DNA from: Spirochaetales bacterium
Lineage (GTDB): Bacteria > Spirochaetota > Spirochaetia > Sphaerochaetales > Sphaerochaetaceae
Assembly: GCA_017475725.1 (NCBI GenBank)
Contig: JAFVFA010000052.1
Span: 1 to 37,094, forward strand
Length of the DNA stretch: 37,094 bases
Direction: 5' to 3'
Position 1 is the first letter of the stretch, and every line of letters starts with the position of its first letter. Below are positions 8,817 through 37,094 of the stretch, one piece after another. The translations under genes and the position numbers were made by a program. The notes beneath the pieces are model-generated. The model ran no database searches. It was not told the DNA's origin and saw nothing but the letters and a program-made list of their open reading frames with translations.

Positions 8817-8827
8817 GGTCGTAGGAT

Positions 8828-11800
8828 ATGAGAAAACTAGTCTTGTTTGTTTTGTTGATTTCTTTGTTCGCCATGGTCTCCTGCAACGAGGAGCCTGCTA
8901 CTGTGGTCCAGCAGACCCCCACAATCAGGGGTTCCGTCTCAATCCCCGCAGGTGCAGGGGTCACCGGAAGTGACTTTTACGTCCGCATCATGGAGGGTGA
9001 GAGGGCTGTCTACACCGACAAGGTGAACAGTGACGGTTCATTCTCGGTGTCCGGACTCAGTGAGGAGAGGACATACAGCATACTTCTCACAACTGAGGAG
9101 CCGGGAAACATCAACGACAGCTCAAGGGATGTCCCAAGGGCAGCCACCAGCGGCTACGGCGGATGGCTGAGCAATGTGACGGCATCGGTCAACGAGCAGG
9201 CAGGGGTTGGTTCAATCAAGGTGAAGCCACTTGGAACAATCAGGGGCGTTGTGAAGAAGGACGGCGCCGAGGACAACTACGACACAACCGTATACATCCC
9301 TGGAACCTCATATCTTGCCATGACGGATGGAGAGGGGAACTTCAGCATCTTCAATGTTCCACAAGCCACATATACCCTCAGATTCATCTCCAGCGGCTAC
9401 ATGGCAAGGATGGTTGATAATGTGGTGTTGCATTCAGACAGTGACACAGAGAATCCGGTCACCACTGTGCAGGCACAGACACTGATAAAGAACGCTGGAA
9501 ATCTCATTGGAACGATCTCGAAGACAGGCTCAACAGATCACAGCAATGTTACAGTCATGCTCAGTGATGGAAAGAACACCTTCACAGGAAGCACGTCTTC
9601 AGACGGAAGTCTGCTAATCTCCAGCATAATCCCTGGAACATATACTGCCACAATCAGTGCAAGCGGGTTCCTGACACAGACAATCGAAGGCCTCACAATA
9701 GAGGCTGCGAAGAACACGGCACTCAATCCTATAAGCCTCATAGCAAATGGTGGAAGCATAGCTGGAACGGTTGAGATGAACGATGGAGGCGAGAAGGCAG
9801 GTGTACTGATAACCGCGAAGAGCACCGATGACAAGTACTCCTACACCACAAGTACGGATGCCGAGGGCAAATACGTGATCAACAACACCTATCCCGGAGT
9901 ATACATCCTAACCGCCTCAAAAGCTGGTTATCCCTCTGTGACTACAGGAGAAGCAGCCTCAATTGCAGGACAGACAACAACTATTGGAGTCATTTCCCTC
10001 TCATCCAAGTATGGCAGTGTCTCAGGCAGGGTGGCACTTTCAGAGAGTGTGGACAACAGTGGAGTTACAGTTTCCCTTACATGCGGTGCAGGTCCGTCAA
10101 TCGCCTACACGGCTGTGTCAGGAGCAGATGGAACATACACAATCAGTAGCCTTACAACAGCTGGGCAATACACCATCACATTCAGCAAGGACGGCTATGT
10201 GTCTAATACTGGAACCGTGGTGAATGTTGTGCTCGGGCAGAATCAGGTGATAGAGGACGTCACACTGAAGAGCCTTGCCTCCAAGGTGTTCGGAAATGTC
10301 ACCCTTGAAGAGACGGGGGACTACACTGGAATCTCCGTCCAACTGAAGGCAGTGGATGGCTCAGTTCAATACGATGCAACAACGGACCAGCAGGGAAACT
10401 ATGTCATGGCAAGAGTTAACCCCGGCGAATACTCACTGACTGCATCAAAGGCTGGATATGTGTCCAAGACTGTTGAATCGATAATTATTGAGTCGTCAAC
10501 TGAGAAGGAGCTTGATTTAGTGATCCTTAATATAGGAACACGATCTGTTTTCGGAACAGTCAGTCTTGAACTGGGAAACAGTCATGAAGGAACTCTAGTA
10601 ACTGCAACAAATACCCAAGACACTACGAAAATATACTCTGCTATTACTAATACTGCAGGTGAATTCACCCTTGCGGGTATGGTTCCGGGCAGGTATAACG
10701 TTGCATTGTCTCACAGCAACTATGTGACATCCACTGTATCTATCGATGTTATTGACGGTACTCTTGCAACAAACGATAATGTGAAACTTGCAATTGCAAG
10801 AGGTGCAATTCAAGGTTATGCCAAGCTTGAGGGCTACACAGATTACAGCGGAACATCTGTCGTTCTTGTCGGAACGGACTATTCTACCGTCACTGATAAT
10901 GAAGGATTCTATTCACTCAATGTGCCTACGGGAAACTATTCCGGTGGAATCCTGTTCGAACATGAGGATTTCGAGAGTCATATGCATGTCTCTACTGTCA
11001 CTGTGCAGATGAGCGGAGCATATGGAATCCCGACTGTGACATTGGATGCAAAGAATGTCAGAGTGGTTAAAGGTGTATTCACCTTGAAGGACAGATCCGA
11101 CAGTTCAGGCATCTCTGTCTATTTTGAGGATCTTCCACATTATTCTGCAGAGACGGATACAGAGGGAAACTGGGTAATTGAACATGTGCCGCTCGGTCAG
11201 CACAATCTTGTCACATACAGGGAAAACGTCAAGTCGTTCAGTATGACTGTAGAACTTGAACCTGCACCAGCGTATGACAATGGCACATTGGTTCTTATTC
11301 CTGAATCTGCAACAATTCAGGGTTTTGCAAGGTTATCCGGAATGACTTCATATGCAGGCATCGAAGTGACAGCAACACCTGAAGGAGTTGGAGATGTAAT
11401 CACCACAACCACAAAGGCAGATGGGTCATATTATATGTCGAATTTGCTTTCCACATCGGACTACACAATCTCGTTCTTCAAGGAAGGTTGGAAAATGGAA
11501 AGCATCAAGCAGAGGAATTTCACAGAACTTGAAGTCCGGACTCTTGATGATATCGCTATGGTTGATAATACGGCTCCTGTCATTTCCGATGTGGTCATCA
11601 ACAACGGCGGGGCTACGACTTCCGACAGGGAAATAAGAATTTATCTTTCATCCAATGACCTCGGAAGCGGATGCAAAAGAGTCCAGATCAACACAGAAAA
11701 CAGGTTTGATGAAACTGTGATATATAGGGACTATTATGATGAGCAGGATTTCACACTTCCTGAGGGAAACGGTGAAAAGACCATATACATCAAGGTGTAT

Positions 11801-14023
11801 GACCTTGCTGGAAACGGCTCTGAGGTGTTCCGGAAAACAATAACGTTGACCGAACAGAAGACCAAGGTGGGTGGCGTTCTTGTAGGTGCGACTGATATTG
11901 TATGGACCAAAGAAAAGAGTCCGTACTACGTGGAAAGCAGTATTCTGGTCGAGTCTGGTCGTACCTTGACCATAGAGCATGGTGTAGTTGTTGAATTTGC
12001 TGGACCTTACTATATCGATGTCGAGGGAACCATGTATGTTAATGGTACGGAAGACGACATGGTATGTATGTATGGTGTGGGTGAAGGCGAGAATACGTGG
12101 AAGGGTGTAAACTTCCTCAGTAAAAATCTTGTTTATACAGGAACGGAGTATGAACCGGTCTATGTAAGCGGAAACAGGATGTCCTATGTGAACATTCAGA
12201 ATAATGCAGAAGGGATAACGGGAACAGCGTGGATTGAAAAATGTACTATTACGACAAGTTCCAATATAAATGAAAAGGCATCATGGCAATGGCGAGGTCT
12301 TGCATTTGGAAATGCTGGTTTTGGAGAAGGCCCTCAAAGCAATGGAACTCAGATGCAGTCAATTTTCTATGTTTCAGGGGTATTTAAGGATAATACTATC
12401 ATTGGTGATTTCTCCTGCTATGGCTTGGCCCCATTTATTTTTGCAAATAACCAAGTGGAAGGAAATGTGTTTATCCAGAATACAAATAATGATGCTCGCA
12501 ATATGGAGTACCACTTCTACAATAATCGCTTTGTTGGGATAGGCTGCAAGTTTGGAATAGATACTTATTACAAGAATGATTACTTCTTTGCAAATAATGC
12601 TTTTAATGGCTTTGAAAGCCTTTCTGTGTTTTCTAGTTGGAGCACGGAGAGAGTAGATTGGGGCGATTCTCGTTTTTCTTATGATAACTGCTCTTTTGAG
12701 GCCATTAATCAAATTAGCATTGATGTTAGGGGCTCTGGATGTGCAGGACGAATAAAAGGGGTGTTTTGTGGGTGCTTGTTTGATAGCATTGAGACAATTG
12801 AAATCGGTTTTTCTGTTGATGTGAATTATTCTAATATTATTGACGTTTCGAAGATTTCTGTCACATCTCAGAGACAATATCTTGGATCAAACTCATTCTC
12901 CAACAATTACTGGGGGCCTGATAAGGTTTTTTCAATGAATAATAATGGAGATGATTTCAATTATGCCTTCTTCTCTGATTTCTATGACGATATTGTTGTG
13001 TCCAAGCTTGATTATTCGGGATGGGTTCAGAATCCATTTGAAACAGCAGGGTACCGAGGAGAAGACTACTGCTCTTATGAGTTGGTTCCAGAAAAACCTA
13101 TTGAAGCTACTATTAATGTCGATTCAGATTACGTGATGACGAATGTGGGTGTAAATCGCATCTTCGTTTTACCTGTCTACGGATCAGATGCTATAAGGTA
13201 TAGAGCTTTTCAGAACCTTGATGAGTTGTTGGTACTCGCCTCAGATGAAGGATGGACAGAGACTGTCGATCACAAGATTAGTATTTATCCAGATAATCTG
13301 AAAGATTGGTTTATTCAGATAGAAGATGGTAATGGCAGGAAATCACGTGTTTATAGGATAGCACCAATATTTTTGGTCGGAGGTCCTGCGGGAGGATTTG
13401 TATTTTATGACTGCGATGCTGACAACAATTCTGGTGATTCTGATGGTTTAAGGTCTTCTGAGATTGGTTGGAGATATCTTGAGGCTGCTCCAGCAGATCT
13501 TAAGGTTGTCAATGGTGTCCCGACAGTCGACTCTTCTGTCAACGGATATTCAAGTGCTTCCAGCGAATATGAATTCGGTTATTACAGGACAGCCGACAGC
13601 GGAGATAACTTGTATGTAAATGGAACACCCACTTACAGAGGATCCAACTGCACAGGAACTGCCATAGGAACAGGAGAGTCCAATACACAGCTTCTCGCCG
13701 AAGCAATGGGAGATGAGACTTATTCCTCAGAATCTGGCTCAAATAAGACTTCAAACTATGCCGCAAGGTTGTGTGACATAGTTGAATACACTGTGGATGG
13801 AGTGACTTATGACGACTGGTTCCTGCCAAGCAAGGACGAGCTGAACGTGATGTACACCAATCTGCACATGGCTGGTCTAGGCGATTTTGCCAACTACGGC
13901 TACTGGTCATCCAGTGAGGACAGCGATTTCACATACAATGCGTGGTTAGAGAATTTCTATGGAAGCCTGTACTGCAACAGCCGCCAACTCAGATACAAAG
14001 TACGTCCTATACGAACTTTCTAA
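8828..14023 (+). CDS. Giant modular surface lipoprotein 2 (1731 aa): paralogous N-terminal stalk, CarboxypepD_reg-like repeats, Ig-like domain, beta-helix-like region, C-terminal DUF1566 (Lcl C-terminal / C-type-lectin-like) domain
   Basis: An uninterrupted 5.2 kb ORF starting 11 nt after lipoprotein 1. It has a lipobox (LLISLFAMVSC). The first ~380 aa align colinearly with lipoprotein 1, at roughly 60% identity by eye. Confidence 0.9.
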   Translation: MRKLVLFVLLISLFAMVSCNEEPATVVQQTPTIRGSVSIPAGAGVTGSDFYVRIMEGERAVYTDKVNSDGSFSVSGLSEERTYSILLTTEEPGNINDSSRDVPRAATSGYGGWLSNVTASVNEQAGVGSIKVKPLGTIRGVVKKDGAEDNYDTTVYIPGTSYLAMTDGEGNFSIFNVPQATYTLRFISSGYMARMVDNVVLHSDSDTENPVTTVQAQTLIKNAGNLIGTISKTGSTDHSNVTVMLSDGKNTFTGSTSSDGSLLISSIIPGTYTATISASGFLTQTIEGLTIEAAKNTALNPISLIANGGSIAGTVEMNDGGEKAGVLITAKSTDDKYSYTTSTDAEGKYVINNTYPGVYILTASKAGYPSVTTGEAASIAGQTTTIGVISLSSKYGSVSGRVALSESVDNSGVTVSLTCGAGPSIAYTAVSGADGTYTISSLTTAGQYTITFSKDGYVSNTGTVVNVVLGQNQVIEDVTLKSLASKVFGNVTLEETGDYTGISVQLKAVDGSVQYDATTDQQGNYVMARVNPGEYSLTASKAGYVSKTVESIIIESSTEKELDLVILNIGTRSVFGTVSLELGNSHEGTLVTATNTQDTTKIYSAITNTAGEFTLAGMVPGRYNVALSHSNYVTSTVSIDVIDGTLATNDNVKLAIARGAIQGYAKLEGYTDYSGTSVVLVGTDYSTVTDNEGFYSLNVPTGNYSGGILFEHEDFESHMHVSTVTVQMSGAYGIPTVTLDAKNVRVVKGVFTLKDRSDSSGISVYFEDLPHYSAETDTEGNWVIEHVPLGQHNLVTYRENVKSFSMTVELEPAPAYDNGTLVLIPESATIQGFARLSGMTSYAGIEVTATPEGVGDVITTTTKADGSYYMSNLLSTSDYTISFFKEGWKMESIKQRNFTELEVRTLDDIAMVDNTAPVISDVVINNGGATTSDREIRIYLSSNDLGSGCKRVQINTENRFDETVIYRDYYDEQDFTLPEGNGEKTIYIKVYDLAGNGSEVFRKTITLTEQKTKVGGVLVGATDIVWTKEKSPYYVESSILVESGRTLTIEHGVVVEFAGPYYIDVEGTMYVNGTEDDMVCMYGVGEGENTWKGVNFLSKNLVYTGTEYEPVYVSGNRMSYVNIQNNAEGITGTAWIEKCTITTSSNINEKASWQWRGLAFGNAGFGEGPQSNGTQMQSIFYVSGVFKDNTIIGDFSCYGLAPFIFANNQVEGNVFIQNTNNDARNMEYHFYNNRFVGIGCKFGIDTYYKNDYFFANNAFNGFESLSVFSSWSTERVDWGDSRFSYDNCSFEAINQISIDVRGSGCAGRIKGVFCGCLFDSIETIEIGFSVDVNYSNIIDVSKISVTSQRQYLGSNSFSNNYWGPDKVFSMNNNGDDFNYAFFSDFYDDIVVSKLDYSGWVQNPFETAGYRGEDYCSYELVPEKPIEATINVDSDYVMTNVGVNRIFVLPVYGSDAIRYRAFQNLDELLVLASDEGWTETVDHKISIYPDNLKDWFIQIEDGNGRKSRVYRIAPIFLVGGPAGGFVFYDCDADNNSGDSDGLRSSEIGWRYLEAAPADLKVVNGVPTVDSSVNGYSSASSEYEFGYYRTADSGDNLYVNGTPTYRGSNCTGTAIGTGESNTQLLAEAMGDETYSSESGSNKTSNYAARLCDIVEYTVDGVTYDDWFLPSKDELNVMYTNLHMAGLGDFANYGYWSSSEDSDFTYNAWLENFYGSLYCNSRQLRYKVRPIRTF
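8915..11565 (+). repeat. CarboxypepD_reg/PEGA-like beta-sandwich repeat array in lipoprotein 2
   Basis: Modules recur such as YGSVSGRVALSESVDNSGVTVSL...GADGTYTISSLTTAGQYTITFSKDGY, VFGNVTLEETGDYTGISVQLKAVDGS...TDQQGNYVMARVNPGEYSLTASKAGY and IQGYAKLEGYTDYSGTSVVLVGTDYSTVTDNEGFYSLNVPTGNY. Confidence 0.7.
11860..13000 (+). other. Right-handed beta-helix-like region (protein domain) of lipoprotein 2
   Basis: It opens with WTKEKSPYYVESSILVESGRTLTIEHGVVVEFAGPYYIDVEGTMYVNGTEDDMV, the common 'SPY.V...i.V..G.TLTIEPGV.V.F' beta-helix entry motif. N/G/F-rich pseudo-repeats follow. The preceding NTAPVISDVVINNGGATTSDREIRIYLSS...YIKVYDLAGNGS segment looks Ig-like. Boundaries are approximate. Confidence 0.5.
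13375..14020 (+). other. DUF1566 / Lcl C-terminal-like domain of lipoprotein 2
   Basis: The entry is GGPAGGFVFYDCD...GWRYLEAAPADL. The terminal DDWFLPSKDELNVMYTNL...YGYWSSSEDSDFTYNAWLENFYGSLYCNSRQLRYKVRPIRTF matches the DUF1566 pattern W(R/F)LP(T/S)xxEL...YWSS(T/S)E...AW...F..G......VR.(V/I)R.F. Confidence 0.75.
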
Positions 14024-14036
14024 CCAATTTGATTGC

Positions 14037-15137
14037 ATGACAAAAGGAGACCTGTTGAGCGTGTTACATGAATTCAAAGAGTGGCTCGAAATAACAGAAG
14101 ATTCCAAGAATTCCTATAGCTCATATGTTAGTTCTTTGTTTGTTCGTGTCCTTGAGCCTAGGATGGCCGATATAAAGGAAATCTTTAGTGACAATCAAGT
14201 TGAGCCAGATACTCCTCTTTTAGCATGGATTGTTGATTCTGCTCGAAGCGAGGAAGAACTATCTTCGTTTTCTTGTTTGGTAGAGAATATTATTTCAACA
14301 GAGATTGCAAACACCAGAAGTGGTACTAGTTCTTTATCCATACCGGCTAAGACATTATCCAATTACAGAAGTGGCTTTAGAAGATTCATTAATTATCTTG
14401 GAGTAGAGAATAGCGTAGTAAAGAAATGTGAGGATATTGGTTTTCCCAAATCGGAAAAGAAGATTGAGATTCCATTCAATTCTGATCAGTTTTTCAGCCA
14501 CAGACAGATGTTCAACACTTTCAAAAGCAGGCTGAAGACCCAGGATCGTTTTTACTCACACATTATTTTCCCCGTGAGGCTCCTAAGTAAGTTGTTCAAT
14601 GGAAAGGGAAAAAAGGAAGAGTACAACTTGGTACTGAAAAATACCATTGATTCAACAAAGATCCTCATATGTGGAGAAGAAAAGGATGTTTGCTTCAGTT
14701 CTGTTTCATCACTTAACATCAATATAGGAAAAGAAAACTCATGCCAAGTCAATGTTGTAGACAAAGGATGGAAGACTGTATGTACAGAATGTTATGAGAA
14801 TGGTGGCGGACCCAAAATCCGTTTGCTACAACCGTTATCCTTCATGGACTTGTCATTAGATCATGATACAGCAATGCATAACCTTTTGGAGGAGCATTGT
14901 CTGGATTATCCTGCACTTAAAAGGCTCTCTGATCGCATTGCCAATCACTTCAATATATCTGGGGATTACAATCAGCTAAGAGGTTACAGAGATAGGATTT
15001 GTTCAGAATTCTATGAAAGTGTGGGTTTCTCTGAAAACGAGATTGACAATCTTTACAAAGAGTTCGTTGAGCTCAGCGAAAAAATAAGTTTAACAATCAT
15101 GGAGCGTTCTGAGAACTCGAGAAAGAATGCTTCATAA
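14037..15137 (+). CDS. Hypothetical cytoplasmic protein (366 aa), AT-rich orphan inside the surface-protein operon
   Basis: The ORF is open from 13959, but that start overlaps the stop of the upstream gene. The first non-overlapping ATG is 14037 (MTKGDLLSVLHEFKEWLEI...). It has no signal peptide or TM segment, and I recognise no family. Confidence 0.6.
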   Translation: MTKGDLLSVLHEFKEWLEITEDSKNSYSSYVSSLFVRVLEPRMADIKEIFSDNQVEPDTPLLAWIVDSARSEEELSSFSCLVENIISTEIANTRSGTSSLSIPAKTLSNYRSGFRRFINYLGVENSVVKKCEDIGFPKSEKKIEIPFNSDQFFSHRQMFNTFKSRLKTQDRFYSHIIFPVRLLSKLFNGKGKKEEYNLVLKNTIDSTKILICGEEKDVCFSSVSSLNINIGKENSCQVNVVDKGWKTVCTECYENGGGPKIRLLQPLSFMDLSLDHDTAMHNLLEEHCLDYPALKRLSDRIANHFNISGDYNQLRGYRDRICSEFYESVGFSENEIDNLYKEFVELSEKISLTIMERSENSRKNAS

Positions 15138-15167
15138 TGGATAAAACAATTGTTAAAAGGAGTTAAC

Positions 15168-15755
15168 ATGAAAAAAATCGCAATCCTTTTGCTGTGCATC
15201 ATCGCACTGGGACTGATCGTATCATGCCAGGCCACCAACCATGGTGTGGCATTGTCGCAGAACAAGGGAGTGGTCGGGAAGAACGGCATCCCCAGACCGG
15301 ATTGGGTCATCTATGACCAGTCAACCAAGAAGATGCACTTCGCCTCAGGCTTCGGCACAAGCAAGACATTCGAGGTCGCCAAGCAGAAGGCCGTGCTGAA
15401 CGCCGATGCAGAGCTTGCACTGTGGATTGCAAACTCCGTTACCGCCGTCAGGGACAGGTACATAGAGGAGGCCATAGTCAACGAGAGCGAGACATACATC
15501 GACAAGTTCGTCTCCACTGCAACAGAGATGGGCAACGCCGTCATGTCCGGAGTCACAGAGATCGACTACTGGGAGGACGGGGACGGTGGTGTCTGGGTTC
15601 TCCGCGCCATTGAGGTCGCAAACGTCAAGGCACAGATTGCCGCTGCCATAAGCGCAACATGTGCAGAGCCGACCCTGTTCAGCGGCACCACTGATGTCGC
15701 TGATGTCATGGCCAAGCTCAACAAGGCCCTTGACGAGTACTTCCCGGCAGAATGA
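15168..15755 (+). CDS. LPP20/FlgP-like lipoprotein
   Basis: The ATG at 15168 follows AAAAGGAG. A lipobox is present (IIALGLIVSCQ). The core IPRPDWVIY...HFASGFGTSKTFEVAKQKAVLNADAELALWIANSV fits the LPP20 pattern (P.W....y.vG.G......A...A...A..ELa..i). Confidence 0.7.
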   Translation: MKKIAILLLCIIALGLIVSCQATNHGVALSQNKGVVGKNGIPRPDWVIYDQSTKKMHFASGFGTSKTFEVAKQKAVLNADAELALWIANSVTAVRDRYIEEAIVNESETYIDKFVSTATEMGNAVMSGVTEIDYWEDGDGGVWVLRAIEVANVKAQIAAAISATCAEPTLFSGTTDVADVMAKLNKALDEYFPAE

Positions 15756-16762
15756 TGAGAAGGAACCTTTGCATCTTTGCTGCGGTCCTGCTTCTTGCAG
15801 GACTGCTGGTGTCCTGTGCATCGTCAAAGTGGGTGTCGGATCCCTATGCCTCCTATCCGCAGGCTGACTATGTCTGCGCAGTGGGGAAGGGCAGCACTCA
15901 AGATGAAGCCGACCTTGCGGCCAGGCGTGAACTTGCAGCCCTTTTCGGCATGAGTGTGCAGTCCACAATCTCCAGGACCCTTGTCGAGACATCTGTCGAG
16001 AGGGATGGCCGGAGCTCGGAGAGCTTCAGCGAGTTCTTCACAAGCAATGCTACCACAACGGTGAATGTGGACAACCTCTACGGGGTGGAGATCGCCAAAC
16101 GGACGACAGAGAAGGACGGCAGGTCCGTCTCTCTTGCCGTGATGGAGAAGAAGGCCACCGCTGACTACTATCTTGCCAGATTGAAGTCTGACAAAGAGGA
16201 GATCGATGGCCTGAAAGCATCAATTGCACCGAATTTCGGCAAGTTGAAAGCCATTTCGGACTCTGTATCCATCATCCGGAAGGTTAATGACTACAACACC
16301 AGCGTGGTCATGTGCAACTACCTGACCGGTGGGGAGATCCCTTTCATGAGCCTGGCGGAGTTCAGTGAGCTCTACAGACAGGCAATGGATGCCGTTGTGG
16401 TCGATGTTGTTGTGGAAGGCGATCCCTCAGGTGCCGTCAAGAGCGCTGTGGACAAGATCGTCACGGGTTGCGGCCTTTCAGTTGCCGCCGGAAACTCGGA
16501 GCCCACTGCCAAGGTCGCAGTCACAGTGGTTTGGCGTGAGAGTGCAGGTACAGGCGTAGCAAGCTCATTCCTGTTCGCGGACTACAACGCCGACATCTCG
16601 CTGGTGGATCTTGCAGATGGGGAGAGTATCTTCGTCAGATCCTACAAGGGTAAGGAAGGTCATCAGACTTTCGAGAGCGCCAAGGCCAGGGCTATCACAG
16701 ATCTGGTTGGCCAGATCGAGGATGAGTTCGGACCCGCGATGAGGGAAGTCTTCACATACTAG
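15752..16762 (+). CDS. LPP20-domain lipoprotein with C-terminal extension
   Basis: Its start overlaps the upstream stop (ATGA), implying translational coupling. A lipobox is present (LLLAGLLVSCASS). ADYVCAVGKGSTQDEADLAARRELAALFGMSVQSTI is a second LPP20-like core. About 200 further residues are of unknown fold. Confidence 0.65.
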   Translation: MMRRNLCIFAAVLLLAGLLVSCASSKWVSDPYASYPQADYVCAVGKGSTQDEADLAARRELAALFGMSVQSTISRTLVETSVERDGRSSESFSEFFTSNATTTVNVDNLYGVEIAKRTTEKDGRSVSLAVMEKKATADYYLARLKSDKEEIDGLKASIAPNFGKLKAISDSVSIIRKVNDYNTSVVMCNYLTGGEIPFMSLAEFSELYRQAMDAVVVDVVVEGDPSGAVKSAVDKIVTGCGLSVAAGNSEPTAKVAVTVVWRESAGTGVASSFLFADYNADISLVDLADGESIFVRSYKGKEGHQTFESAKARAITDLVGQIEDEFGPAMREVFTY

Positions 16763-18001: not shown

Positions 18002-18125
18002 TAGTTAGCGCCAGAAACTATAGATGATTTTGGCGCTAAGTCAAATAAAAATATAGTTAGCGCCGAAAACTATAGTTGAATTCGGCGCTATTGTGGTTAA
18101 TAATATGGTTAGCGCCAAAATGGTA
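18002..18125. repeat. Two tandem hairpin elements sharing TAGTTAGCGCC(A/G)AAAACTATAG, plus a third half-copy, upstream of ATPase gene 1
   Basis: Hairpin 1 pairs TTAGCGCCA (18005-18013) with TGGCGCTAA (18031-18039), 9 bp. Hairpin 2 pairs TAGCGCCGAA (18058-18067) with TTCGGCGCTA (18081-18090), 10 bp. A third GGTTAGCGCCAAAA at 18107-18120 has no partner arm and lies about 25 nt before the ATG at 18144. Confidence 0.85.
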
Positions 18126-18143
18126 CACTCGGAGGGACAAATT

Positions 18144-19562
18144 ATGCTGATTGGTCGAGATCAAGAACAAAGGAAGCTGAGGGAAGCATATCAGGCTGAA
18201 GAATCCCAGTTCATTGCCGTGTATGGAAGACGCAGAGTAGGCAAGACCTACCTTATCCGTGAAAGCTTCGGATCAGGCTTCACCTTTCAGCATACCGGCT
18301 ACTATGGTGGAAAGCTTTCCGATGAATTGTTTGAATTCTGTGCATCTCTACGAGAGTATGGGCTGACAGATTTTGAAAGGCCCAGGAACTGGCTTGAGGC
18401 ATTTGAGCTCCTTAAAGACTTGATCAGAGGCTCAAAAGGGGAAAAGAAGGTGATATTCCTTGATGAACTGTCATGGATGGATACTCGTGGCAGTGATTTC
18501 ATCATGGCTTTGGAAGGGTTCTGGAACAGTTGGGCTTCTGCTAGGAAGGATATTCTTCTTATTGTCTGTGGTTCTGTGACATCTTGGATGCTGAGTAAAA
18601 TAATCCACAACAAGGGAGGTCTATATAATCGTTTGTCCTGCAGAATCCACCTCCAGCCTTTTACCCTCAAAGAGTGTGAGGAATATATTAAATCTAAAAA
18701 AATAGTTATGAACCGTCATCAGATTCTCGAGAGCTATATGATAATGGGTGGTATTCCGTATTATTGGAGTTTCCTTGAAAAAGGATTGAGTCTAGCACAG
18801 AACATTGACCGCTTGTTTTTTTCCAATGATGCTCCTTTGAAGCAGGAATTCGACTATTTGTACTCTGCACTGTTCAAGAGACCCGAGCCATATCTGGAAA
18901 TCGTTTCTGCCTTGGGAAAGAAAAAGACCGGTATGACAAGAGAAGAACTACTTAAGGTTACACATTCGACAGATTCTGGAAATTTTTCCACTCGATTGGA
19001 GGAGTTGGAAAGTTGCGGTTTCATTCGGAAGTATCGCCGGTATGGAATGAAGGAGCGTAATTCAAACTATCAATTGATTGATAATTATACACTCTTCTAC
19101 TTCAAGTTTTTGGATGACAGGCCCACAGATGAGCATTATTGGAGTAATCAGATCAACACGCCAAAGGTCAATGCTTGGTGCGGATTGGCCTTTGAAATGG
19201 TTTGCCTTGAGCATGTCCCTCAGATTAAGAATGCGCTTGGAATCTCCGGGGTTTTGACTGAGGCATACTCATGGATTTGCAAAGAGGATTCAGAGAAGGG
19301 CATACATGGATCTCAGATAGATTTGGTCATTGCCAGAAAGGATCAGGTGATCGACTTATGTGAAATGAAGTTTTCAGTGAAGATGTTTTCTATAACGGAG
19401 AAGATTGATGAGTCCATCAGACGGAAGGCTTCAGATTTTCTTCTGTCCACAGGCGCAAAGTATGCGATTCATACGATACTGGTGACTCCTTATGGAGTTG
19501 CAGATCGCTCCTACGTAGGGAGTATACAGAAAGTCATTACAACAGAGGACCTGTTTTCTTGA
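18144..19562 (+). CDS. Orphan ATP-binding protein, archaeal-type ATPase (Arch_ATPase) + DUF234-like C-terminal PD-(D/E)xK-like domain
   Basis: I prefer the ATG at 18144 because GGAGGG lies 7 nt upstream; the ORF is open from 18093. MLIGRDQEQRKLREAY....FIAVYGRRRVGKTYLIRE is the family N-terminus with Walker A, and VIFLDELSWM is Walker B. The C-terminal GSQIDLVIARKDQVIDLCEMKFS resembles a D...(D/E)xK nuclease-fold core. Confidence 0.8.
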   Translation: MLIGRDQEQRKLREAYQAEESQFIAVYGRRRVGKTYLIRESFGSGFTFQHTGYYGGKLSDELFEFCASLREYGLTDFERPRNWLEAFELLKDLIRGSKGEKKVIFLDELSWMDTRGSDFIMALEGFWNSWASARKDILLIVCGSVTSWMLSKIIHNKGGLYNRLSCRIHLQPFTLKECEEYIKSKKIVMNRHQILESYMIMGGIPYYWSFLEKGLSLAQNIDRLFFSNDAPLKQEFDYLYSALFKRPEPYLEIVSALGKKKTGMTREELLKVTHSTDSGNFSTRLEELESCGFIRKYRRYGMKERNSNYQLIDNYTLFYFKFLDDRPTDEHYWSNQINTPKVNAWCGLAFEMVCLEHVPQIKNALGISGVLTEAYSWICKEDSEKGIHGSQIDLVIARKDQVIDLCEMKFSVKMFSITEKIDESIRRKASDFLLSTGAKYAIHTILVTPYGVADRSYVGSIQKVITTEDLFS

Positions 19563-25851: not shown

Positions 25852-27183
25852 ATGTATCTTAAACGCAAGATTGATTCGTATCTGGCAGAATGGAAAAAGG
25901 ACCCGGATAGAAAACCGCTGATTGTCAAAGGCGCGCGACAGATAGGGAAGACCAGATCCATAGAGATGTTCGCTGAGAATAACTATTCTCACGTGGTCTA
26001 TATCAATTTTGTCCTGGAGCCTAAATACAAGAGCATCATCTCCGATGGATACGATGTTAACTCGATTGTACGGAACATCAGCCTTCTGGATCCTTCAAAG
26101 GTATTCATGGAAGGACATACCCTGCTTGTCTTTGACGAGATTCAGGATTGCCCGGATATAGCAACCACATTGAAATCTTTCTGTCTTGACAGGCGGTATG
26201 ATGTGATCTGCTCCGGTTCAATGCTTGGGATCAACTATAAGAAGATCCACAGCAACAGTGTGGGCTTCAAGACCGATTATGAGATGCATTCCCTCGATTT
26301 CGAGGAGTTCCTTTGGGCTAGAGGACGCAATGAGGCTGCCGATGATATTCTGACCCATATGGTCAACTATGTTCCGTTCTCTGACGTTGAAATGAAGGTT
26401 TACAAGGACCTGCTGCTGGAATATGCAGTGATCGGTGGAATGCCTGCCGTGGTCAGCGGCTTCATTCAGAGACAGAGTTATGAAGGTTCTTTGGAGACCC
26501 AAGGACAGATTGTTCTGGATTATGAGGAGGATATCCGGAAGTACGTGACTGGTCTTGAACAGACCAAGATAATCAACGTTTTCAGGAGTATCCCGGCGCA
26601 GCTTGCAAAGGAGAACAAGAAGTTCCAGTTCTCGGTTGTATCCAGCAAGGCCAGAAGCAGGGAATACTCCGGTTGCATCGATTGGCTGGTTGATTCCGGC
26701 ATTGTGAACATATGCTATTGCATGGGGTTCCCTGAGTTGCCTATCAAGGGAAATGTGGACTACAGCAAGTTCAAGCTCTATTATTCTGACTCCGGTCTTC
26801 TTGTGTCCCAGCTGGATGAGGAAGCCCAGTATGATATAAGGGCAAACAGGAATCTGGGCACCTACAAAGGTGCTCTGTATGAGAACCTCGTTTCAGAAGC
26901 ATTCGTCAAACAGAATCTTCCTACTGTGTATTACAAACGTGATGACTCGACACTTGAAGAAGATTTCTTTGTCAGAACACCAGATGAGCTGATCCCTGTT
27001 GAAGTGAAGGCGAACAACAACAATTCAAAATCCATGCGTACCCTGATACAGTCGAATCACTATCCTGAAATTCACAGAGGCATGAAGTTCTCTGATGCCA
27101 ATGTCGGGAATGAGAACAGCATCATGACGTTTCCGCTTTTCTGTGCATTCCAGACCAAGAGGTTCCTTTCAATGTTGAAGTGA
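25852..27183 (+). CDS. Orphan ATP-binding protein, AAA_14 ATPase + DUF4143 (PD-(D/E)xK-like) domain
   Basis: The N-terminus is YLKRKIDSYLAEWKKDPDRKPLIVKGARQIGKTRSIEMF (Walker A) and LLVFDEIQ is Walker B. The C-terminal EEDFFVRTPDELIPVEVKANNN is the conserved DUF4143 E/D...P(V/I)EVK core. An AGGAGAG RBS lies 5 nt upstream. Confidence 0.85.
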   Translation: MYLKRKIDSYLAEWKKDPDRKPLIVKGARQIGKTRSIEMFAENNYSHVVYINFVLEPKYKSIISDGYDVNSIVRNISLLDPSKVFMEGHTLLVFDEIQDCPDIATTLKSFCLDRRYDVICSGSMLGINYKKIHSNSVGFKTDYEMHSLDFEEFLWARGRNEAADDILTHMVNYVPFSDVEMKVYKDLLLEYAVIGGMPAVVSGFIQRQSYEGSLETQGQIVLDYEEDIRKYVTGLEQTKIINVFRSIPAQLAKENKKFQFSVVSSKARSREYSGCIDWLVDSGIVNICYCMGFPELPIKGNVDYSKFKLYYSDSGLLVSQLDEEAQYDIRANRNLGTYKGALYENLVSEAFVKQNLPTVYYKRDDSTLEEDFFVRTPDELIPVEVKANNNNSKSMRTLIQSNHYPEIHRGMKFSDANVGNENSIMTFPLFCAFQTKRFLSMLK

Positions 27184-31864: not shown

Positions 31865-32656
31865 TCAGCCGATTCTCTCTCCCTTGGAGTTGAAGTCGGC
31901 GTGTTTGCCTGTTGGGATGTGCGAGGCATCAAGTCTCTTGAGGGCAAGGTCGTTGTCCGGATAGAAGTCTATCCAGAGGTAGTGGCAGTGCTCGCCTTCC
32001 TTGACGTCAACTCCGTGCATCGATCCAAGTGGGATGTAGAGCAGCTCCGAACCTGACATGTGGACGGGTTCGAAGTCGATCAGGACGTCCATCTCGTTCT
32101 CCGGGAAAGAGAAGAAGTACTGGTCAAGCATCGGGTGGTCATGCGACTTGACTGCATCGACTCCATATGTCTCGACAGAACCGTAGGCGAAACGTGGAAT
32201 CTTCCTCTGGTCAACGCAGCTTCTGCTGATGGTCTTGTCGCTCTTGTTCCTGTCCCTGTACTGCTTTGAGTTGCGGTAGATCTGGATGAGAGGGAACTGC
32301 GTCTTGTACTCTGCTGCCAGCTCGTCATCGCCCTCTCTGAAGTTCCATCTGATCTCAAGTATGTGTGCATCCGTCTTGGCCTTGATGGTGACGCTGCATT
32401 TTGGATCCGGGATGAGGGAGACTCTCTCGTGGAATGAGTACTCGTTGCCGTCAGTGTCGAACTCAACCTCTCCGATGAAGCAGATCAGGATATGGTAGAA
32501 GTCTCCGGGCTCGAGTGTGAGCTCAGTCCCCGCCATGATCGAGTGATGATAGGGTGTGGCACCGGGAATGCATCCCGGCAGCAGCACTGTTGTTCTGTTC
32601 TCTCTTGTTGTGACATCCAGTTTCTGGGTTGGTACGTCTCTCATATGTTCCTCCAT
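31865..32656 (-). CDS. Cupin-fold protein of unknown function (possible bicupin)
   Basis: A C-terminal cupin metal motif is present (SHDHPMLDQYFF...IPLGSMHGV). An N-terminal cupin-like half lacks clear His ligands. An alternative start at 32644 has GGAGGA 4 nt upstream. The stop lies 2 nt before the PMI-like start. Confidence 0.6.
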   Translation of the reverse strand: MEEHMRDVPTQKLDVTTRENRTTVLLPGCIPGATPYHHSIMAGTELTLEPGDFYHILICFIGEVEFDTDGNEYSFHERVSLIPDPKCSVTIKAKTDAHILEIRWNFREGDDELAAEYKTQFPLIQIYRNSKQYRDRNKSDKTISRSCVDQRKIPRFAYGSVETYGVDAVKSHDHPMLDQYFFSFPENEMDVLIDFEPVHMSGSELLYIPLGSMHGVDVKEGEHCHYLWIDFYPDNDLALKRLDASHIPTGKHADFNSKGERIG

Positions 32657-32667
32657 TTTACCGTTTT

Positions 32668-34896
32668 CTATTCTTCACAGGCATCGCCGTTTACGGCTCT
32701 GACCCTGTCCACGACCAGTTCTCTGAACTTCTCGCTCAACATGGCGAAGAAGGCCGTGAAGCCTGTGACCCTGACGACAAGGTCCGGATACTTGTACGGA
32801 TCCTTGTGAGCCTCCAGTATCTTCTTGGCATCGATTATGTTGATGTTCAGAAGGGTGTTTCCGCTCTTCATTATGCCCATGACCATGGCGCACATCTTGT
32901 CGACCCCTTCCGGGTCGTTGGCTATCTGAGGGTCAACCTCAAGCTGGACGGGGGCGGTGTTCCCGTAGCCAGGCTGGATGGCGGCGATGGAGTTGCACAT
33001 GCTTGTCACAGCTCCATCCTTCCTGAAACCGCCGTTCGGGTTTGCCCCATGGTTTATGGGTTCTCCCTTCCTTCTTCCGTTGGGCGTAGCACCCAGGATC
33101 GAACCCAGAAGTATGGTGTTTGACCAGGAGAAGAAGCCCGGGATGAAGTTGACGTGCTTCGGGTTGTCGCTGTGCTGTCTGACAAGGTCCCTTACCAGAG
33201 AGGTCCAGAGTTTGGATATCCTGACGGCCCATCTGTCACCTATGGTGTCTCCGCCGCCGTATCTCTCGCTGTGGAGCATCATCTGCCTTGTGTATTCCCC
33301 GCCTTCATCGTTGAAGTCCGCATCCATGTGCCTGGTGAGTTCGGCGTAGGTGAGCTTGTGCTCTATGTCTATCCTCTGCTCGCAGGCGGCGAAACTGTCG
33401 GCCGCAACTGCCAGGCCCGCTCCGTCGACGCACATGTTGTAGTAGTTGGCCCCTCCGTCCGTTATGTTCTCCCCCTTCTCGATCAGACCGTGCTGGAAGA
33501 GGTTGAGGATCAGCTCTGGCTGGCTCTTTGTCTGGTAGGTCAGATGGTGGATTATGCCCTTTCCGGTTGCATCCACTGCTATCTTCAGATGCTTGCTGAA
33601 GTAGTCCCAGAGGACCTCTGAGCTTGGGGTTATGCTTCCGGCGTTGTCCATCATGTCCTTGTAGGCCACGGAGAACACCATTGCGATGTTGACCTTGACC
33701 GTGTCGTTCATCGTGTATTCCATGCCCGGCATGCACATCCAGTGGCATCCTGCGGCAACCCTCTTCCTTGCAAGCTCCTTGGAGTAGCCGCATCTCATGA
33801 ATCCTTCGGTGAGGGCCTTGTCGTTCGAGTATCTTGGCCATCCCTGCTTGTTCTTGAAAAGGAGCTCAACGGACTCCCTGAAGAAGACAGGGTCAAGCTT
33901 GTCATGGACCCTGATCGTCAGGTTTGTCGCGATGTTGAGCTTGTCTGCGGCGTAGAGGGCAAGGTAGCTCAGATGACAGGTCTTGTCGTTGTCGTTCTCG
34001 TCAGGTCCTCCAAGCTGCCAGTATCTGCTGTCCTGCAGGAACATGCAGGCAAGGTAGAAGATGGCCTCGTCGTCCGTGAGCCTTCCGGCTTTGATGTCAC
34101 GCTCATAGAACGGGTTGAAGAGGTCCTCAAGCTGTCCACCTGCGCTTCCTCTGTTGTAGGTTCTGCTCAGCATGCTGAACCAGTTGCTCCATTGGATGGC
34201 CTCCCTGAAGGTCTCAGGAGGATTTTCAGCTATCTTTCTGTCAATATCGGCCATTATTCTGAGGTTTTCGGAAAGCTGCTTGTTCTTCTCCTCCCTGGAG
34301 CAGGCCTCAATCTCGTCCGCGGCCCTCCTTATGAAGGCCATTATGTTCTCCACAACCTCTATCTCGGAGTCGTAGAATTCCCTGTGTGTCTCGTCATGGA
34401 GCTCCTTCTGCTCCTTGAGCTTTCTGAGTATTCCACCCCATCCGAGGTCCATTCCGATCTGGAGATCCGGTGTGAAATGGTGGCAGTTGTCTATTCCCGA
34501 TATGACCTGGTACTTGTCGAAGATGGCCTGGAGCTCAGGGTAGGCGTAGTCAGGGTTCCACTTCTTTGTCTTGGGTCTGAGTCTCTCAAGGAACAGAAAG
34601 CCCTTTGCGGAGAAGGCATCAAGGGCATCCACGTAGATTGGATGCTGCTGCAGAATGGAGCAGTAGTTCTCCGTCCATGCCTTGTAGCCGTATATGGATC
34701 CGTTGGGGTGGTTGGGTTTCAGCTTGTAGTCGAACACATTCTGGACTATAAGCCCGTAGTCGTCCTCGTCCGCTCCACCGGCCTTTGCCTTCTCTTCGGT
34801 CTGCTGGACCTTCCGCCTGCGCAGAAGTGCAATCCTCTCGTCATAGGAGAATGTCCTGTTCGGGTCGAACTCGTTTATGAATCTTATCTCGCTCAT
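32668..34896 (-). CDS. Glycyl radical enzyme, PFL2/dehydratase-like class, divergent (742 aa)
   Basis: The C-terminal glycine-radical motif is DLVVRVTGFTAFFAMLSEKFRELVVDRV (Gly712, codon 32763-32761). The candidate thiyl loop AAGCHWMCMPG carries Cys384 (codon 33747-33745), 328 aa upstream of Gly712. The internal EAIQWSNWF...GGQLEDLFNPFYERDIKAGRLTDDEAIFYLACMF matches the PFL2 core. An activase gene lies adjacent. Confidence 0.9.
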   Translation of the reverse strand: MSEIRFINEFDPNRTFSYDERIALLRRRKVQQTEEKAKAGGADEDDYGLIVQNVFDYKLKPNHPNGSIYGYKAWTENYCSILQQHPIYVDALDAFSAKGFLFLERLRPKTKKWNPDYAYPELQAIFDKYQVISGIDNCHHFTPDLQIGMDLGWGGILRKLKEQKELHDETHREFYDSEIEVVENIMAFIRRAADEIEACSREEKNKQLSENLRIMADIDRKIAENPPETFREAIQWSNWFSMLSRTYNRGSAGGQLEDLFNPFYERDIKAGRLTDDEAIFYLACMFLQDSRYWQLGGPDENDNDKTCHLSYLALYAADKLNIATNLTIRVHDKLDPVFFRESVELLFKNKQGWPRYSNDKALTEGFMRCGYSKELARKRVAAGCHWMCMPGMEYTMNDTVKVNIAMVFSVAYKDMMDNAGSITPSSEVLWDYFSKHLKIAVDATGKGIIHHLTYQTKSQPELILNLFQHGLIEKGENITDGGANYYNMCVDGAGLAVAADSFAACEQRIDIEHKLTYAELTRHMDADFNDEGGEYTRQMMLHSERYGGGDTIGDRWAVRISKLWTSLVRDLVRQHSDNPKHVNFIPGFFSWSNTILLGSILGATPNGRRKGEPINHGANPNGGFRKDGAVTSMCNSIAAIQPGYGNTAPVQLEVDPQIANDPEGVDKMCAMVMGIMKSGNTLLNINIIDAKKILEAHKDPYKYPDLVVRVTGFTAFFAMLSEKFRELVVDRVRAVNGDACEE

Positions 34897-35985: not shown

Positions 35986-36044
35986 TTGAAAACGCGGATG
36001 ATGGGATTTAGAATTTTCTTTGTTGAATTATTATGGGAGGGTAT

Positions 36045-37094
36045 ATGCAGCTGGACAACAAAACGATTTTTCTGATAGTTGAGCCAAACTACATGACGCC
36101 CTTCTGGTATGCACGGAGCATAGAGGGGCTGGAGGAGGCCGCGGCAAGGCACAAGCAGGAGGTCCGCAGGCTCTCTTCCATCAATGAGCTCGATGTTCAG
36201 ACAACCGCCATAGTCATAATCGGCACCACACACTCATGGATAAAGGAGACGCTGGACCAGGTCAGGTCCAGAAACCTCCGCCCGATACTGATCGGGACCA
36301 TACCGTCCAAGTACGGTGAGGATGTCTCCGGGACGATGTACGGCAGCCATTCGGCAATAGAGGAGATGGTCCACTATTTCCATTATTACGGACGCAGGAA
36401 GATCGCCCTGGTTGACATCAATGCGAATTCGTCCAACGACTCCATGAAGGTCGAGAGCTTTCTGGGCACAACCAGCAAGCTGGGTCTGGACACCTCATAC
36501 AACGACATCTTCTTCCGCAACTCAGGGTCCCAGAATGGGGATGACAAGTTCCTGCAGAACATACGGTCCTATGATGGCGTCATCTGCTCGAACGACTACT
36601 CCGCCGCCTTCCTGCTGAAGTACGCAGAGGACAACGGAATCAGGGTCCCGGACGAGCTTTTTGTGGCGGGGTTGGGGGATACATCCCTCTGCCGCTACAC
36701 CAATCCCACCCTGACATCTGCCACAAGAAGCTACTACGAGACGGGCGAGAACGCCTATGAGCTGTGGAGGACCCTGACACGCAACCCGAACGTGGAGTCA
36801 ATAGTCACTACAATGCGCAGCTACCTCAAGCCCAGAGGGAGCACGGGCTTCATGCCGGGTGTCAAGGTGGAGATCAACCAGTTCGGTGTCCCTGCCGCAA
36901 GCTCCGAGCTCGACAAGAACATAATGAGGAAGGGCGCAGACTCCCTGAAGTCAATCCAGGAATGCCTTTCCCAGTGTGACTCTGTGGACATGTCGATAAT
37001 AGCCGGAGTCCTGACCAACGACAGCAATGAAAGGCTCGCAGAGGACCTCTCAATGTCGACTGGAGCCATAAACTACAGGCTGAAGAAACTCTAC
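36045..37094 (+). CDS. Transcriptional regulator with LacI/PBP-type sugar-binding domain and C-terminal LuxR/sigma-r4-like HTH, 3'-truncated by window end
   Basis: This ORF is not in the track because it has no stop in the window; I translated it by hand from the ATG at 36045 (GGGAGG 5-10 nt upstream). The frame stays open for 350 codons to the window end. It begins directly with the PBP core (TIFLIVEPNYMTPFWYARSIEGLEEAA...RKIALVDINANSSNDSMKVESF...DGVICSNDYSAAFLLKYAEDNGIRVPDELFVAGLGDT). It ends with DMSIIAGVLTNDSNERLAEDLSMSTGAINYRLKKLY, which is HTH-like. Confidence 0.7.
   Translation, partial: MQLDNKTIFLIVEPNYMTPFWYARSIEGLEEAAARHKQEVRRLSSINELDVQTTAIVIIGTTHSWIKETLDQVRSRNLRPILIGTIPSKYGEDVSGTMYGSHSAIEEMVHYFHYYGRRKIALVDINANSSNDSMKVESFLGTTSKLGLDTSYNDIFFRNSGSQNGDDKFLQNIRSYDGVICSNDYSAAFLLKYAEDNGIRVPDELFVAGLGDTSLCRYTNPTLTSATRSYYETGENAYELWRTLTRNPNVESIVTTMRSYLKPRGSTGFMPGVKVEINQFGVPAASSELDKNIMRKGADSLKSIQECLSQCDSVDMSIIAGVLTNDSNERLAEDLSMSTGAINYRLKKLY

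Follow-up and report, generated by a model that had tools for sequence, protein, structure and literature searches.

The window analysed here covers positions 1-37,094 (37,094 nucleotides (nt)) of the forward strand of contig JAFVFA010000052.1 (assembly GCA_017475725.1) from a Spirochaetales bacterium. Its minus strand carries a compact operon, with intergenic gaps of 11-13 nt, that contains an intact open reading frame (ORF) for a glycyl radical enzyme (GRE) of 742 amino acids (aa) and, directly upstream across a gap of 13 nt, the gene of its cognate activase (Table 1). The PFL-like barrel (PF02901, E value 3.8e-83, 280.7 bits) and the C-terminal glycyl radical domain (PF01228, E value 4.1e-13, 50.2 bits) were both found in the ORF above the Pfam cut-offs, which places the protein in the PFL-like division of the GRE superfamily (IPR004184). 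The AlphaFold2 (AF2) model had a predicted local distance difference test score (pLDDT) of 87.9 and a predicted TM score (pTM) of 0.88. With this model, Foldseek returned PflD, glycerol dehydratase (GDH) and CutC as best matches, and also PD and HypD, at a TM score of about 0.8 and about 20% identity. A phmmer search against all PDB sequences gave full-length alignments to the same three enzymes, E. coli PflD being the best (E value 7.7e-46). PFL (1h16) aligned over residues 589-731 only, that is, over the C-terminal glycyl radical domain.

Gly712 is invariant in the family, so the Ala, Ser or Thr radical site of the aminoacyl radical enzymes (AAREs) is absent. Of the GRE fingerprint RVxG[FWY]x6-8[FL]x4Qx2[IV]x2R (quoted in PMC13450708), RVTGF, L720, V728 and R731 are there, but Arg725 takes the Gln position. 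The translation confirmed an earlier reading of the same DNA, made from the sequence only, in that Cys384 precedes Gly712 by 328 residues, in agreement with the spacing of about 330 that separates the catalytic Cys from the radical Gly in GREs. At the level of radical generation, the protein would work like a PFL2-type GRE.

The Cys loop

The loop was aligned by phmmer without gaps, GCHWMCMPG falling on GCVELSIPG of PflD, GCVEPQKPG of GDH and GCVEPQKSG of CutC. Because these alignments agree column for column, Cys384 corresponds to the thiyl-radical Cys, and Trp386 to Glu435 of GDH, Glu491 of CutC and the Glu of PflD. The sequence-only reading had proposed both assignments, and both stood up in an alignment of 69 family sequences (29-79% identity), in which about 59 positions, including Cys384 and Gly712, were at least 97% conserved. 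The residue pairs that it used for comparison (C433/E435 in GDH, C489/E491 in CutC, C434/E436 in HypD and C468/E470 in IslA) agree with the published ones (PMC13450708). Its coordinates for the loop, 33733-33765, encode KRVAAGCHWMC (aa 378-388); they lie 9 nt off the 11-mer that it quoted but do contain C384, H385, W386 and C388.

We also looked for a different conserved Cys with a Glu at +2 and found none. Only Cys384 is invariant in the family among the 13 Cys residues of the GRE, and no conserved Cys in the family alignment is followed by Glu at +2. The sole C-x-E of the protein (C740-E741-E742) lies in the C-terminal tail, which is unconserved and disordered (pLDDT below 50). The idea that another Cys is the thiyl site was rejected on these grounds. 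The CXE motif of GRE 1,2-eliminases and isomerases (as defined in PMC13450708) is therefore replaced by C384-H385-W386, with the Trp invariant in the family. A superfamily review published in 2026, which distinguishes seven GRE classes, states that CXE is retained, and its Glu bonded to the substrate, in each of the six C-O eliminases, in CutC, in the three C-S lyases and in the three isomerases (PMC13450708). Since the Glu-to-Trp exchange is conserved in the clade and all those enzymes keep CXE, we infer that the proton-transfer arrangement may differ from that of the known eliminases and isomerases.

The residues around the Trp behaved differently. H-W-x-C did not hold together as a unit, and only the Trp is fixed. 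At +1 the family has Asn in 59% and His in 41% of sequences, the far part of the clade has Phe, Gln, Pro or Gly, and the enzymes with the canonical loop (CxE) have Val or Ile. Because Asn alternates with His at this position, an obligatory acid/base role of His385 is ruled out, and His385 was rejected as the base. The +4 position holds Ala in 39%, Cys in 25% and Ser in 25% of the family, and otherwise Gly, Asn or Val. Cys388 is present in all 120 nearest cluster representatives (at least 81% identity), which all read AAGCHWMC[IM]PG, the few named ones being labelled Spirochaetales or Sphaerochaeta. It is fixed only in the subfamily of the window protein, at 69% identity or more.

The sequence-only reading had also likened the second Cys to the Cys418/Cys419 pair of PFL. 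We take the extra Cys of PFL to stand at -1 to the one that aligns with Cys384. Here the -1 residue is Gly383, 99% conserved as in all PFL2-class enzymes, and the second Cys stands at the variable +4 position, so the likeness did not hold. Two adjacent essential Cys residues, as in PFL and TdcE, are thus absent. As the protein has neither CXE nor an adjacent Cys pair, it is set apart from the eliminases and isomerases and from the formate lyases. From the conservation pattern, Cys388 appears to be merely a small residue and His385 one of two accepted hydrogen-bonding residues; both were discarded as tempting but wrong targets for mutagenesis.

Table 1. Coordinates of the GRE, its marker residues and the neighbouring genes in the window
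Feature	Position	Strand	Remarks
GRE, 742 aa	32668-34896	-	PFL2-like, "CxW" clade; Pfam, AF2, Foldseek
Glycyl radical motif RVTGF	32758-32772	-	Gly712 at 32761-32763; RVTG[FY] in all family members
Cys loop AAGCHWMCMPG, aa 381-391	33724-33756	-	Aligns to GCVE(L/P)... of PflD, GDH, CutC
Cys384, predicted thiyl-radical Cys	33745-33747	-	69/69 family sequences; aligned to catalytic Cys of solved GREs
His385 (+1), His/Asn position	33742-33744	-	N 41, H 28 of 69
Trp386 (+2), at catalytic Glu position of CXE; clade hallmark	33739-33741	-	W in 69/69 family sequences and all 24 full-length CxW representatives
Cys388 (+4), variable small-residue position	33733-33735	-	A 27, C 17, S 17, G 4, N 3, V 1 of 69
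Arg379, for canonical Tyr five residues before Cys	33760-33762	-	R in 68/69 family sequences; Y in 51/52 CxE
Asp398, GDH Asp447 equivalent; invariant	33703-33705	-	phmmer alignment and conservation
Glu461, clade-specific Glu co-varying with Trp386	33514-33516	-	Glu in 44/46 CxW vs 1/54 CxE
His140, GDH His164 equivalent	34477-34479	-	Alignment; conserved
Arg725, for fingerprint Gln	32722-32724	-	R in 12/14 near-family; Q in 50/52 CxE and 9/10 far CxW
GRE-activating radical S-adenosylmethionine enzyme, 300 aa	34910-35812	-	TIGR02494, 279 bits vs cut-off 174; Pfam Radical_SAM, Fer4_12
Cupin-domain protein, 263 aa, HxH...H metal motif	31865-32656	-	Directly downstream of GRE, kept in subfamily
Phosphomannose-isomerase (PMI)-like cupin, 362 aa	30774-31862	-	Pfam MPI_cupin_dom, PMI_typeI_cat; PDB 1qwr, E value 1e-15
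Flavin adenine dinucleotide (FAD)-dependent oxidoreductase, 412 aa	29529-30767	-	PF12831
Gfo/Idh/MocA oxidoreductase, 340 aa	28522-29544	-	Closest solved: WlbA-type sugar 3-dehydrogenases; PDB 3q2k, E value 2.5e-49; 3q2i, E value 6.9e-45
LacI-type regulator (Peripla_BP_3), divergent	36033-37094	+	Runs off window end; same arrangement in locus L081

Distribution and marker residues of the CxW clade

A sensitive search of 1.84 billion representatives at 50% identity returned full-length relatives at 35-50% identity and a second tier at 27-32%, with the canonical GC[VI]E enzymes only lower. Members of the second tier also had Trp at +2 (GCFWY, GCQWY, GCGWY, ACPWY), which carries the Cys-x-Trp (CxW) clade to relatives of only 27% identity. 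A neighbour-joining tree was built from 85 full-length representatives, and the 24 CxW sequences among them formed one clade with no CxE sequence inside. Trp at +2 is the hallmark of this monophyletic clade. Scanning one genome per GTDB species gave 60 loci with family members, and all of them carried G-C-[HN]-W-x-x-[ILVM]-P-G together with RVTG[FY]. The carriers belonged to the Clostridia, Bacteroidota, Planctomycetota, Verrucomicrobiota, Chloroflexota, Spirochaetota, Latescibacterota, Ignavibacteria, Armatimonadota and Lentisphaeria and to one Bathyarchaeia metagenome-assembled genome (MAG), at least 10 phyla in all. Two of the carriers, Neglectibacter timonensis SN17 (L008) and Faecalicatena fissicatena KCTC 15010 (L038), are gut isolates available in culture.

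The member from the Bathyarchaeia MAG (43% identity, L018 10001-12214), whose contig was binned as Candidatus Bathyarchaeia, has the loop GCHWFAIPG and an adjacent activase; among archaea, the function of no PFL-like GRE has been characterised (PMC13450708). An Acutalibacteraceae MAG carries two tandem GRE-activase pairs, with GREs of 749 and 725 aa, beside four Gfo/Idh/MocA genes and a TIM barrel (L037, about 10001-16547). Outside the clade, nine other full-length GRE representatives also had no CXE (P0182, P0199, P0201, P0207, P0236, P0245, P0250, P0252 and P0254), with loops such as GCSTG, GCADP, GCQHF, GCSIF, GCVGV, GCCHP, GCCNI, GCVSL and GCANP. Non-canonical Cys loops are therefore not unique to the CxW clade, and further unexplored variants exist.

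The 24 CxW representatives (14 near-family and 10 far) were compared column by column with 52 CxE representatives. Beside the Trp, the clade was marked by Glu461, at a site where CxE enzymes have a conserved P-x-P. C384, W386, D398 and E461 were invariant across the 69 family sequences, and H140 was nearly so (13 of the 14 near-family representatives). Throughout the CxW clade, Asp398, Glu393-Tyr394 and Trp591 were conserved, and Thr preceded the radical Gly (RVTG, against RV[AS]G in CxE). Besides Arg379, the near family differed from CxE enzymes at His436 (Gln), Gln641 (Asp) and Asn684 (Gln), and also at Tyr292. Arg725 represents a second departure from the superfamily signature, besides the Cys loop.

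Alignment with GDH equated Tyr292 with Tyr339 and Phe589 with Tyr640, in addition to the His140 and Asp398 equivalences. In GDH, His164 is proposed to protonate the hydroxyl that leaves, and Glu435 is the base (PMC13450708). Like the 1,2-eliminases in general (GDH, PD, HypD, CutC, IslA and HpsG), the CxW protein retains the fold, the position of the thiyl Cys and the Cys-Gly spacing, and it has conserved counterparts of GDH His164, Asp447 and Tyr339. It differs from GDH in having Trp for Glu435, Phe for Tyr640, Arg for the Tyr before the loop and Arg for the fingerprint Gln. Judged by these columns, the enzyme keeps the "acid side" of an eliminase, has lost the loop base and has gained another invariant carboxylate. 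Glu461 may be a candidate for a relocated acid/base residue, or else a structural anchor.

Assignment to a known curated family was rejected. NCBIfam and Pfam gave superfamily-level matches only, far below the family cut-offs, for the window protein and for eight other clade members. With the PFL2/GDH model TIGR01774 the window protein scored 221.9 bits and the other eight 231-374 bits, against a cut-off of 678.2. The equivalog models for HypD, CutC, HpsG, HpfG and PflD gave 158-190 bits against cut-offs of 1000-1109. Full-text literature searches on GREs, including bioRxiv preprints since 2023, found no paper on the CxW clade in the library searched, and a paper on sulfoquinovose in Sphaerochaetaceae concerns a sulfo-transketolase pathway and not a CxW GRE. 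Within the PFL2-like GREs, the CxW clade forms a separate, so far uncharacterised group that is spread over many phyla.

Operon and gene neighbourhoods

The operon runs on the minus strand in the order activase, GRE, 263-aa cupin, PMI-like cupin, FAD oxidoreductase, Gfo/Idh/MocA oxidoreductase and a membrane protein of the Na/Ca-exchanger type. Its core, from the activase to the Gfo/Idh/MocA gene, recurs in four other loci (L002, L003, L063 and L081). The 263-aa cupin matched no Pfam or NCBIfam model above threshold, had no relative in PDB and came out of profile searches only as a generic cupin; 72 positions were invariant among six orthologues. In the locus of an 81%-identical homologue (L081, 1741-8917), a TRAP transporter (DctPQM), two xylose-isomerase-like TIM barrels and another Gfo/Idh/MocA gene lie beyond the divergent regulator. 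Since the window ends inside this regulator, equivalents of these genes may lie just outside it.

The 60 family loci had an activase in 42 cases and Gfo/Idh/MocA genes in 21, often in two to four copies. ATP-binding cassette (ABC) sugar permeases were found in 17 loci, AraC regulators in 15, LacI/GntR regulators in 10, URO-D-like genes in 9, TIM-barrel isomerases in 7 and GH38 alpha-mannosidases in 6. Single loci added GH47, GH31, GH36, a GxGYxYP putative glycosidase, aldose 1-epimerase, an aldo-keto reductase and Zn-dependent polyol dehydrogenases. Several of the URO-D-like (PF01208) genes stood immediately beside the GRE (the loci include L012, L028, L030, L032, L038, L041 and L044). The common theme of these contexts is the catabolism of a carbohydrate-derived compound. 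Naming the substrate from gene context was rejected, as the neighbourhoods were too varied; because of this heterogeneity, different subfamilies probably have different substrates, and no single one can be named.

Mechanism and reaction class

The reading we favour, as the most probable one although far from certain, is that the window protein is a catalytically competent GRE that processes sugars by a rewired mechanism, and that His385 and Cys388 have no catalytic part in it. The adjacent activase would place the radical on Gly712, and Cys384 at the tip of the Cys loop would then form the thiyl radical that takes a hydrogen from the substrate. Trp386, with the clade-conserved Trp591 and Phe589, may form an aromatic platform that places a sugar-derived ring over the thiyl radical; proteins usually bind carbohydrates by such aromatic surfaces. 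Proton transfers would be carried out by other residues, including His140 and Asp398. A carboxylate found only in the clade may contribute, with Glu461 as the best candidate and Glu393 or Asp491 as alternatives. His385, replaced by Asn in most relatives, would have at most a hydrogen-bonding role, and Cys388 would serve as a small residue. The gene context suggests that the substrate is a carbohydrate or sugar-acid derivative, on which Gfo/Idh/MocA sugar (3-)dehydrogenases and isomerases of the cupin or TIM-barrel type would act as well. Alternatively, the partner dehydrogenases might supply the carbonyl, as a keto substrate, so that ketyl formation by a Cys-loop Glu would be unnecessary.

Several points weigh against this picture. 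In the AF2 model, Glu461 belongs to a loop after the helix 426-458, off the barrel strands, and its role may be a structural one only. The Cys loop itself was modelled with pLDDT of 77-83 for residues 381-400, the lowest but one of the core. Phe589 and Trp591 presumably lie on the strand lining the active site, a placement that follows from what we take to be the substrate-contact residues of CutC, HypD and IslA and from the alignment with GDH Tyr640. Finally, apart from the activase, no partner occurred in more than 35% of the heterogeneous loci.

The sequence-only reading had also taken the lost Glu and the nearby second Cys to imply a mechanism other than standard 1,2-elimination. An altered proton-transfer arrangement is a reasonable part of that conclusion, but a chemistry other than 1,2-elimination does not follow, given that the equivalents of GDH His164 and Asp447 are kept and that the clade has its own Glu461. 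One rival reading is an ordinary 1,2-eliminase or isomerase, such as a dehydratase or a ring-opening enzyme, that acts on a sugar or polyol. Ketyl chemistry would be kept, the base would come from elsewhere (Glu461, Glu393 or Asp491) and the Trp would be a substrate-binding adaptation that leaves the mechanism unchanged. The closest solved relatives, by sequence and by fold, are PflD, a 1,5-anhydromannitol-6-P isomerase, GDH and CutC, and His140, Asp398 and Tyr292 match their GDH counterparts. The clade-specific Glu appears exactly in those enzymes that have lost the loop Glu, and a context of sugar catabolism fits such an enzyme. On the other hand, CXE is kept throughout the eliminases and isomerases characterised so far, roughly 16 of them, whatever their substrate, and a relocated base would be unprecedented in the class. 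The candidate Glu461 is off the barrel strands, and the changes of Tyr to Arg379, of Gln to Arg725 and of RV[AS]G to RVTG suggest a deeper divergence. Taken together, we consider this explanation possible but rather unlikely.

The best PDB matches in sequence and fold are the GRE isomerases PflD/YbiW, which open the rings of 1,5-anhydromannitol-6-P and 1,5-anhydroglucitol-6-P (PDB 8yjo, 8id0, 8id7). The CxW protein shares with them the PFL2 architecture, a single loop Cys preceded by Gly, the ...PG..Y..(H/N)D segment after the loop, the sugar context and a TIGR02494-type activase. It differs in its identity of only about 20%, in having C-[HN]-W for CXE and in its score with the PflD model NF007437 (190 bits against a cut-off of 1109). 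A phosphosugar pathway is expected to bring phosphotransferase system (PTS), kinase or aldolase genes. The CxW loci instead carry ABC or TRAP uptake systems; no systematic search for PTS, kinase and aldolase genes was made.

Non-eliminase chemistry appears improbable. A sugar acid or keto-sugar would then undergo, for example, radical decarboxylation or the cleavage or rearrangement of a C-C bond, by analogy with the arylacetate decarboxylases and X-succinate synthases, which do not depend on a loop Glu as the base for a hydroxyl. These enzymes offer a precedent for another logic of proton and electron transfer in PFL-like GREs, as in the Kolbe-type mechanism of HPAD and in PAD with its essential Gln484 and Trp495 (PMC13450708). 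The loss of the loop Glu fits such chemistry, and Arg379, specific to the family, is a possible ligand for a carboxylate. A TRAP transporter, a type typical for organic acids, is encoded on L081, the closest long contig. URO-D-like genes occur in 9 of the 60 loci, whereas a few loci have UxuA and a PfkB-like sugar kinase (assigned by its sequence alone); the partner dehydrogenases could make keto substrates. Against this, the similarity to the decarboxylases and X-succinate synthases is distant, with 95 bits for the IAD and 94 bits for the HPAD equivalog model against cut-offs of 1100-1150. Small subunits of the HPAD/BSS type are not encoded adjacent to the GRE. The context is one of carbohydrates and not of aromatics or hydrocarbons, and most family loci have CUT1-type ABC sugar permeases and not acid transporters.

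A PFL-like mechanism, in which the radical would be relayed between Cys384 and Cys388 and one of them would attack a substrate carbonyl covalently like Cys418/Cys419, is very improbable. Such a loop would be novel, since two loop cysteines are known only in PFL and TdcE (PMC13450708). Like these enzymes, the window protein belongs to the GRE superfamily and has more than one loop Cys; both occur in its 120 close homologues as well, and the +4 Cys recurs in distant members, including 17 of the 69 family sequences and 3 of the 10 far-clade representatives. However, the PFL cysteines are adjacent and essential, whereas the spacing here is i/i+4, with an invariant Gly at -1 where PFL has its extra Cys. 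A catalytic Cys would not tolerate replacement by Ala, the most frequent residue at +4 (39%), and the PFL equivalog TIGR01255 gave 69 bits against a cut-off of 994. That the protein is a degenerate, non-catalytic paralogue, as the missing catalytic Glu and the scores below all curated family cut-offs might suggest, is hardly credible given the conservation of some 59 positions over at least 10 phyla, the invariance of the replacement Trp itself, the activase dedicated to the GRE in 42 of 60 loci and the intact ORF in a tightly spaced operon.

Going further than the rewired sugar-processing enzyme that we favour, the CxW clade as a whole might be a new functional class of GREs. Its members would have given up the loop base for an aromatic sugar platform and would either have moved the acid/base function to Glu461 or have no need of it, acting on carbonyl substrates supplied by dehydrogenases. 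The reaction would be a new radical reaction of a keto-sugar or sugar acid (C-C cleavage, rearrangement, or deoxygenation without a ketyl-forming base). This extension is tentative, and we would sooner expect it to fail than to hold. If it is true, an unrecognised anaerobic pathway for carbohydrates would exist in the gut, the rumen and sediments, in bacteria from 10 or more phyla.

All GRE eliminases and isomerases are regarded as sharing CXE as their mechanistic signature, and functional predictions from sequence rely on it. The invariant Trp and the compensating changes at Glu461, Arg379 and Arg725 imply that the catalytic apparatus of GREs may be more plastic than the characterised examples suggest. 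The CxW genes lie in sugar-utilisation loci beside sugar dehydrogenases, isomerases and glycosidases; the CxW reaction, once worked out, would therefore probably bring to light a new anaerobic route by which gut and rumen microbiomes handle a carbohydrate-derived compound. Whole GRE clades are still unannotated (PMC13450708), so that such groups are to be expected, and a conserved Cys-x-Trp loop with a co-varying Glu in sugar loci represents a concrete lead to new GRE chemistry.

Elsewhere in the window, two adjacent plus-strand ORFs of 2042 and 1731 aa (2688-14023) contain repeated CarboxypepD_reg-like beta-sandwich domains, the first also BspA-type leucine-rich repeats, and both probably encode surface proteins. 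A little downstream of them lie three lipoprotein-like ORFs (LPP20, LPP20 and LpoB). AAA-ATPase genes stand between the metabolic operons at 18093-19562 and 25852-27183, both on the plus strand. One of the two has ATPase_2 and AAA_14 domains and the other AAA_14 and DUF4143; in L081, too, a DUF4143 gene comes after the GRE operon.

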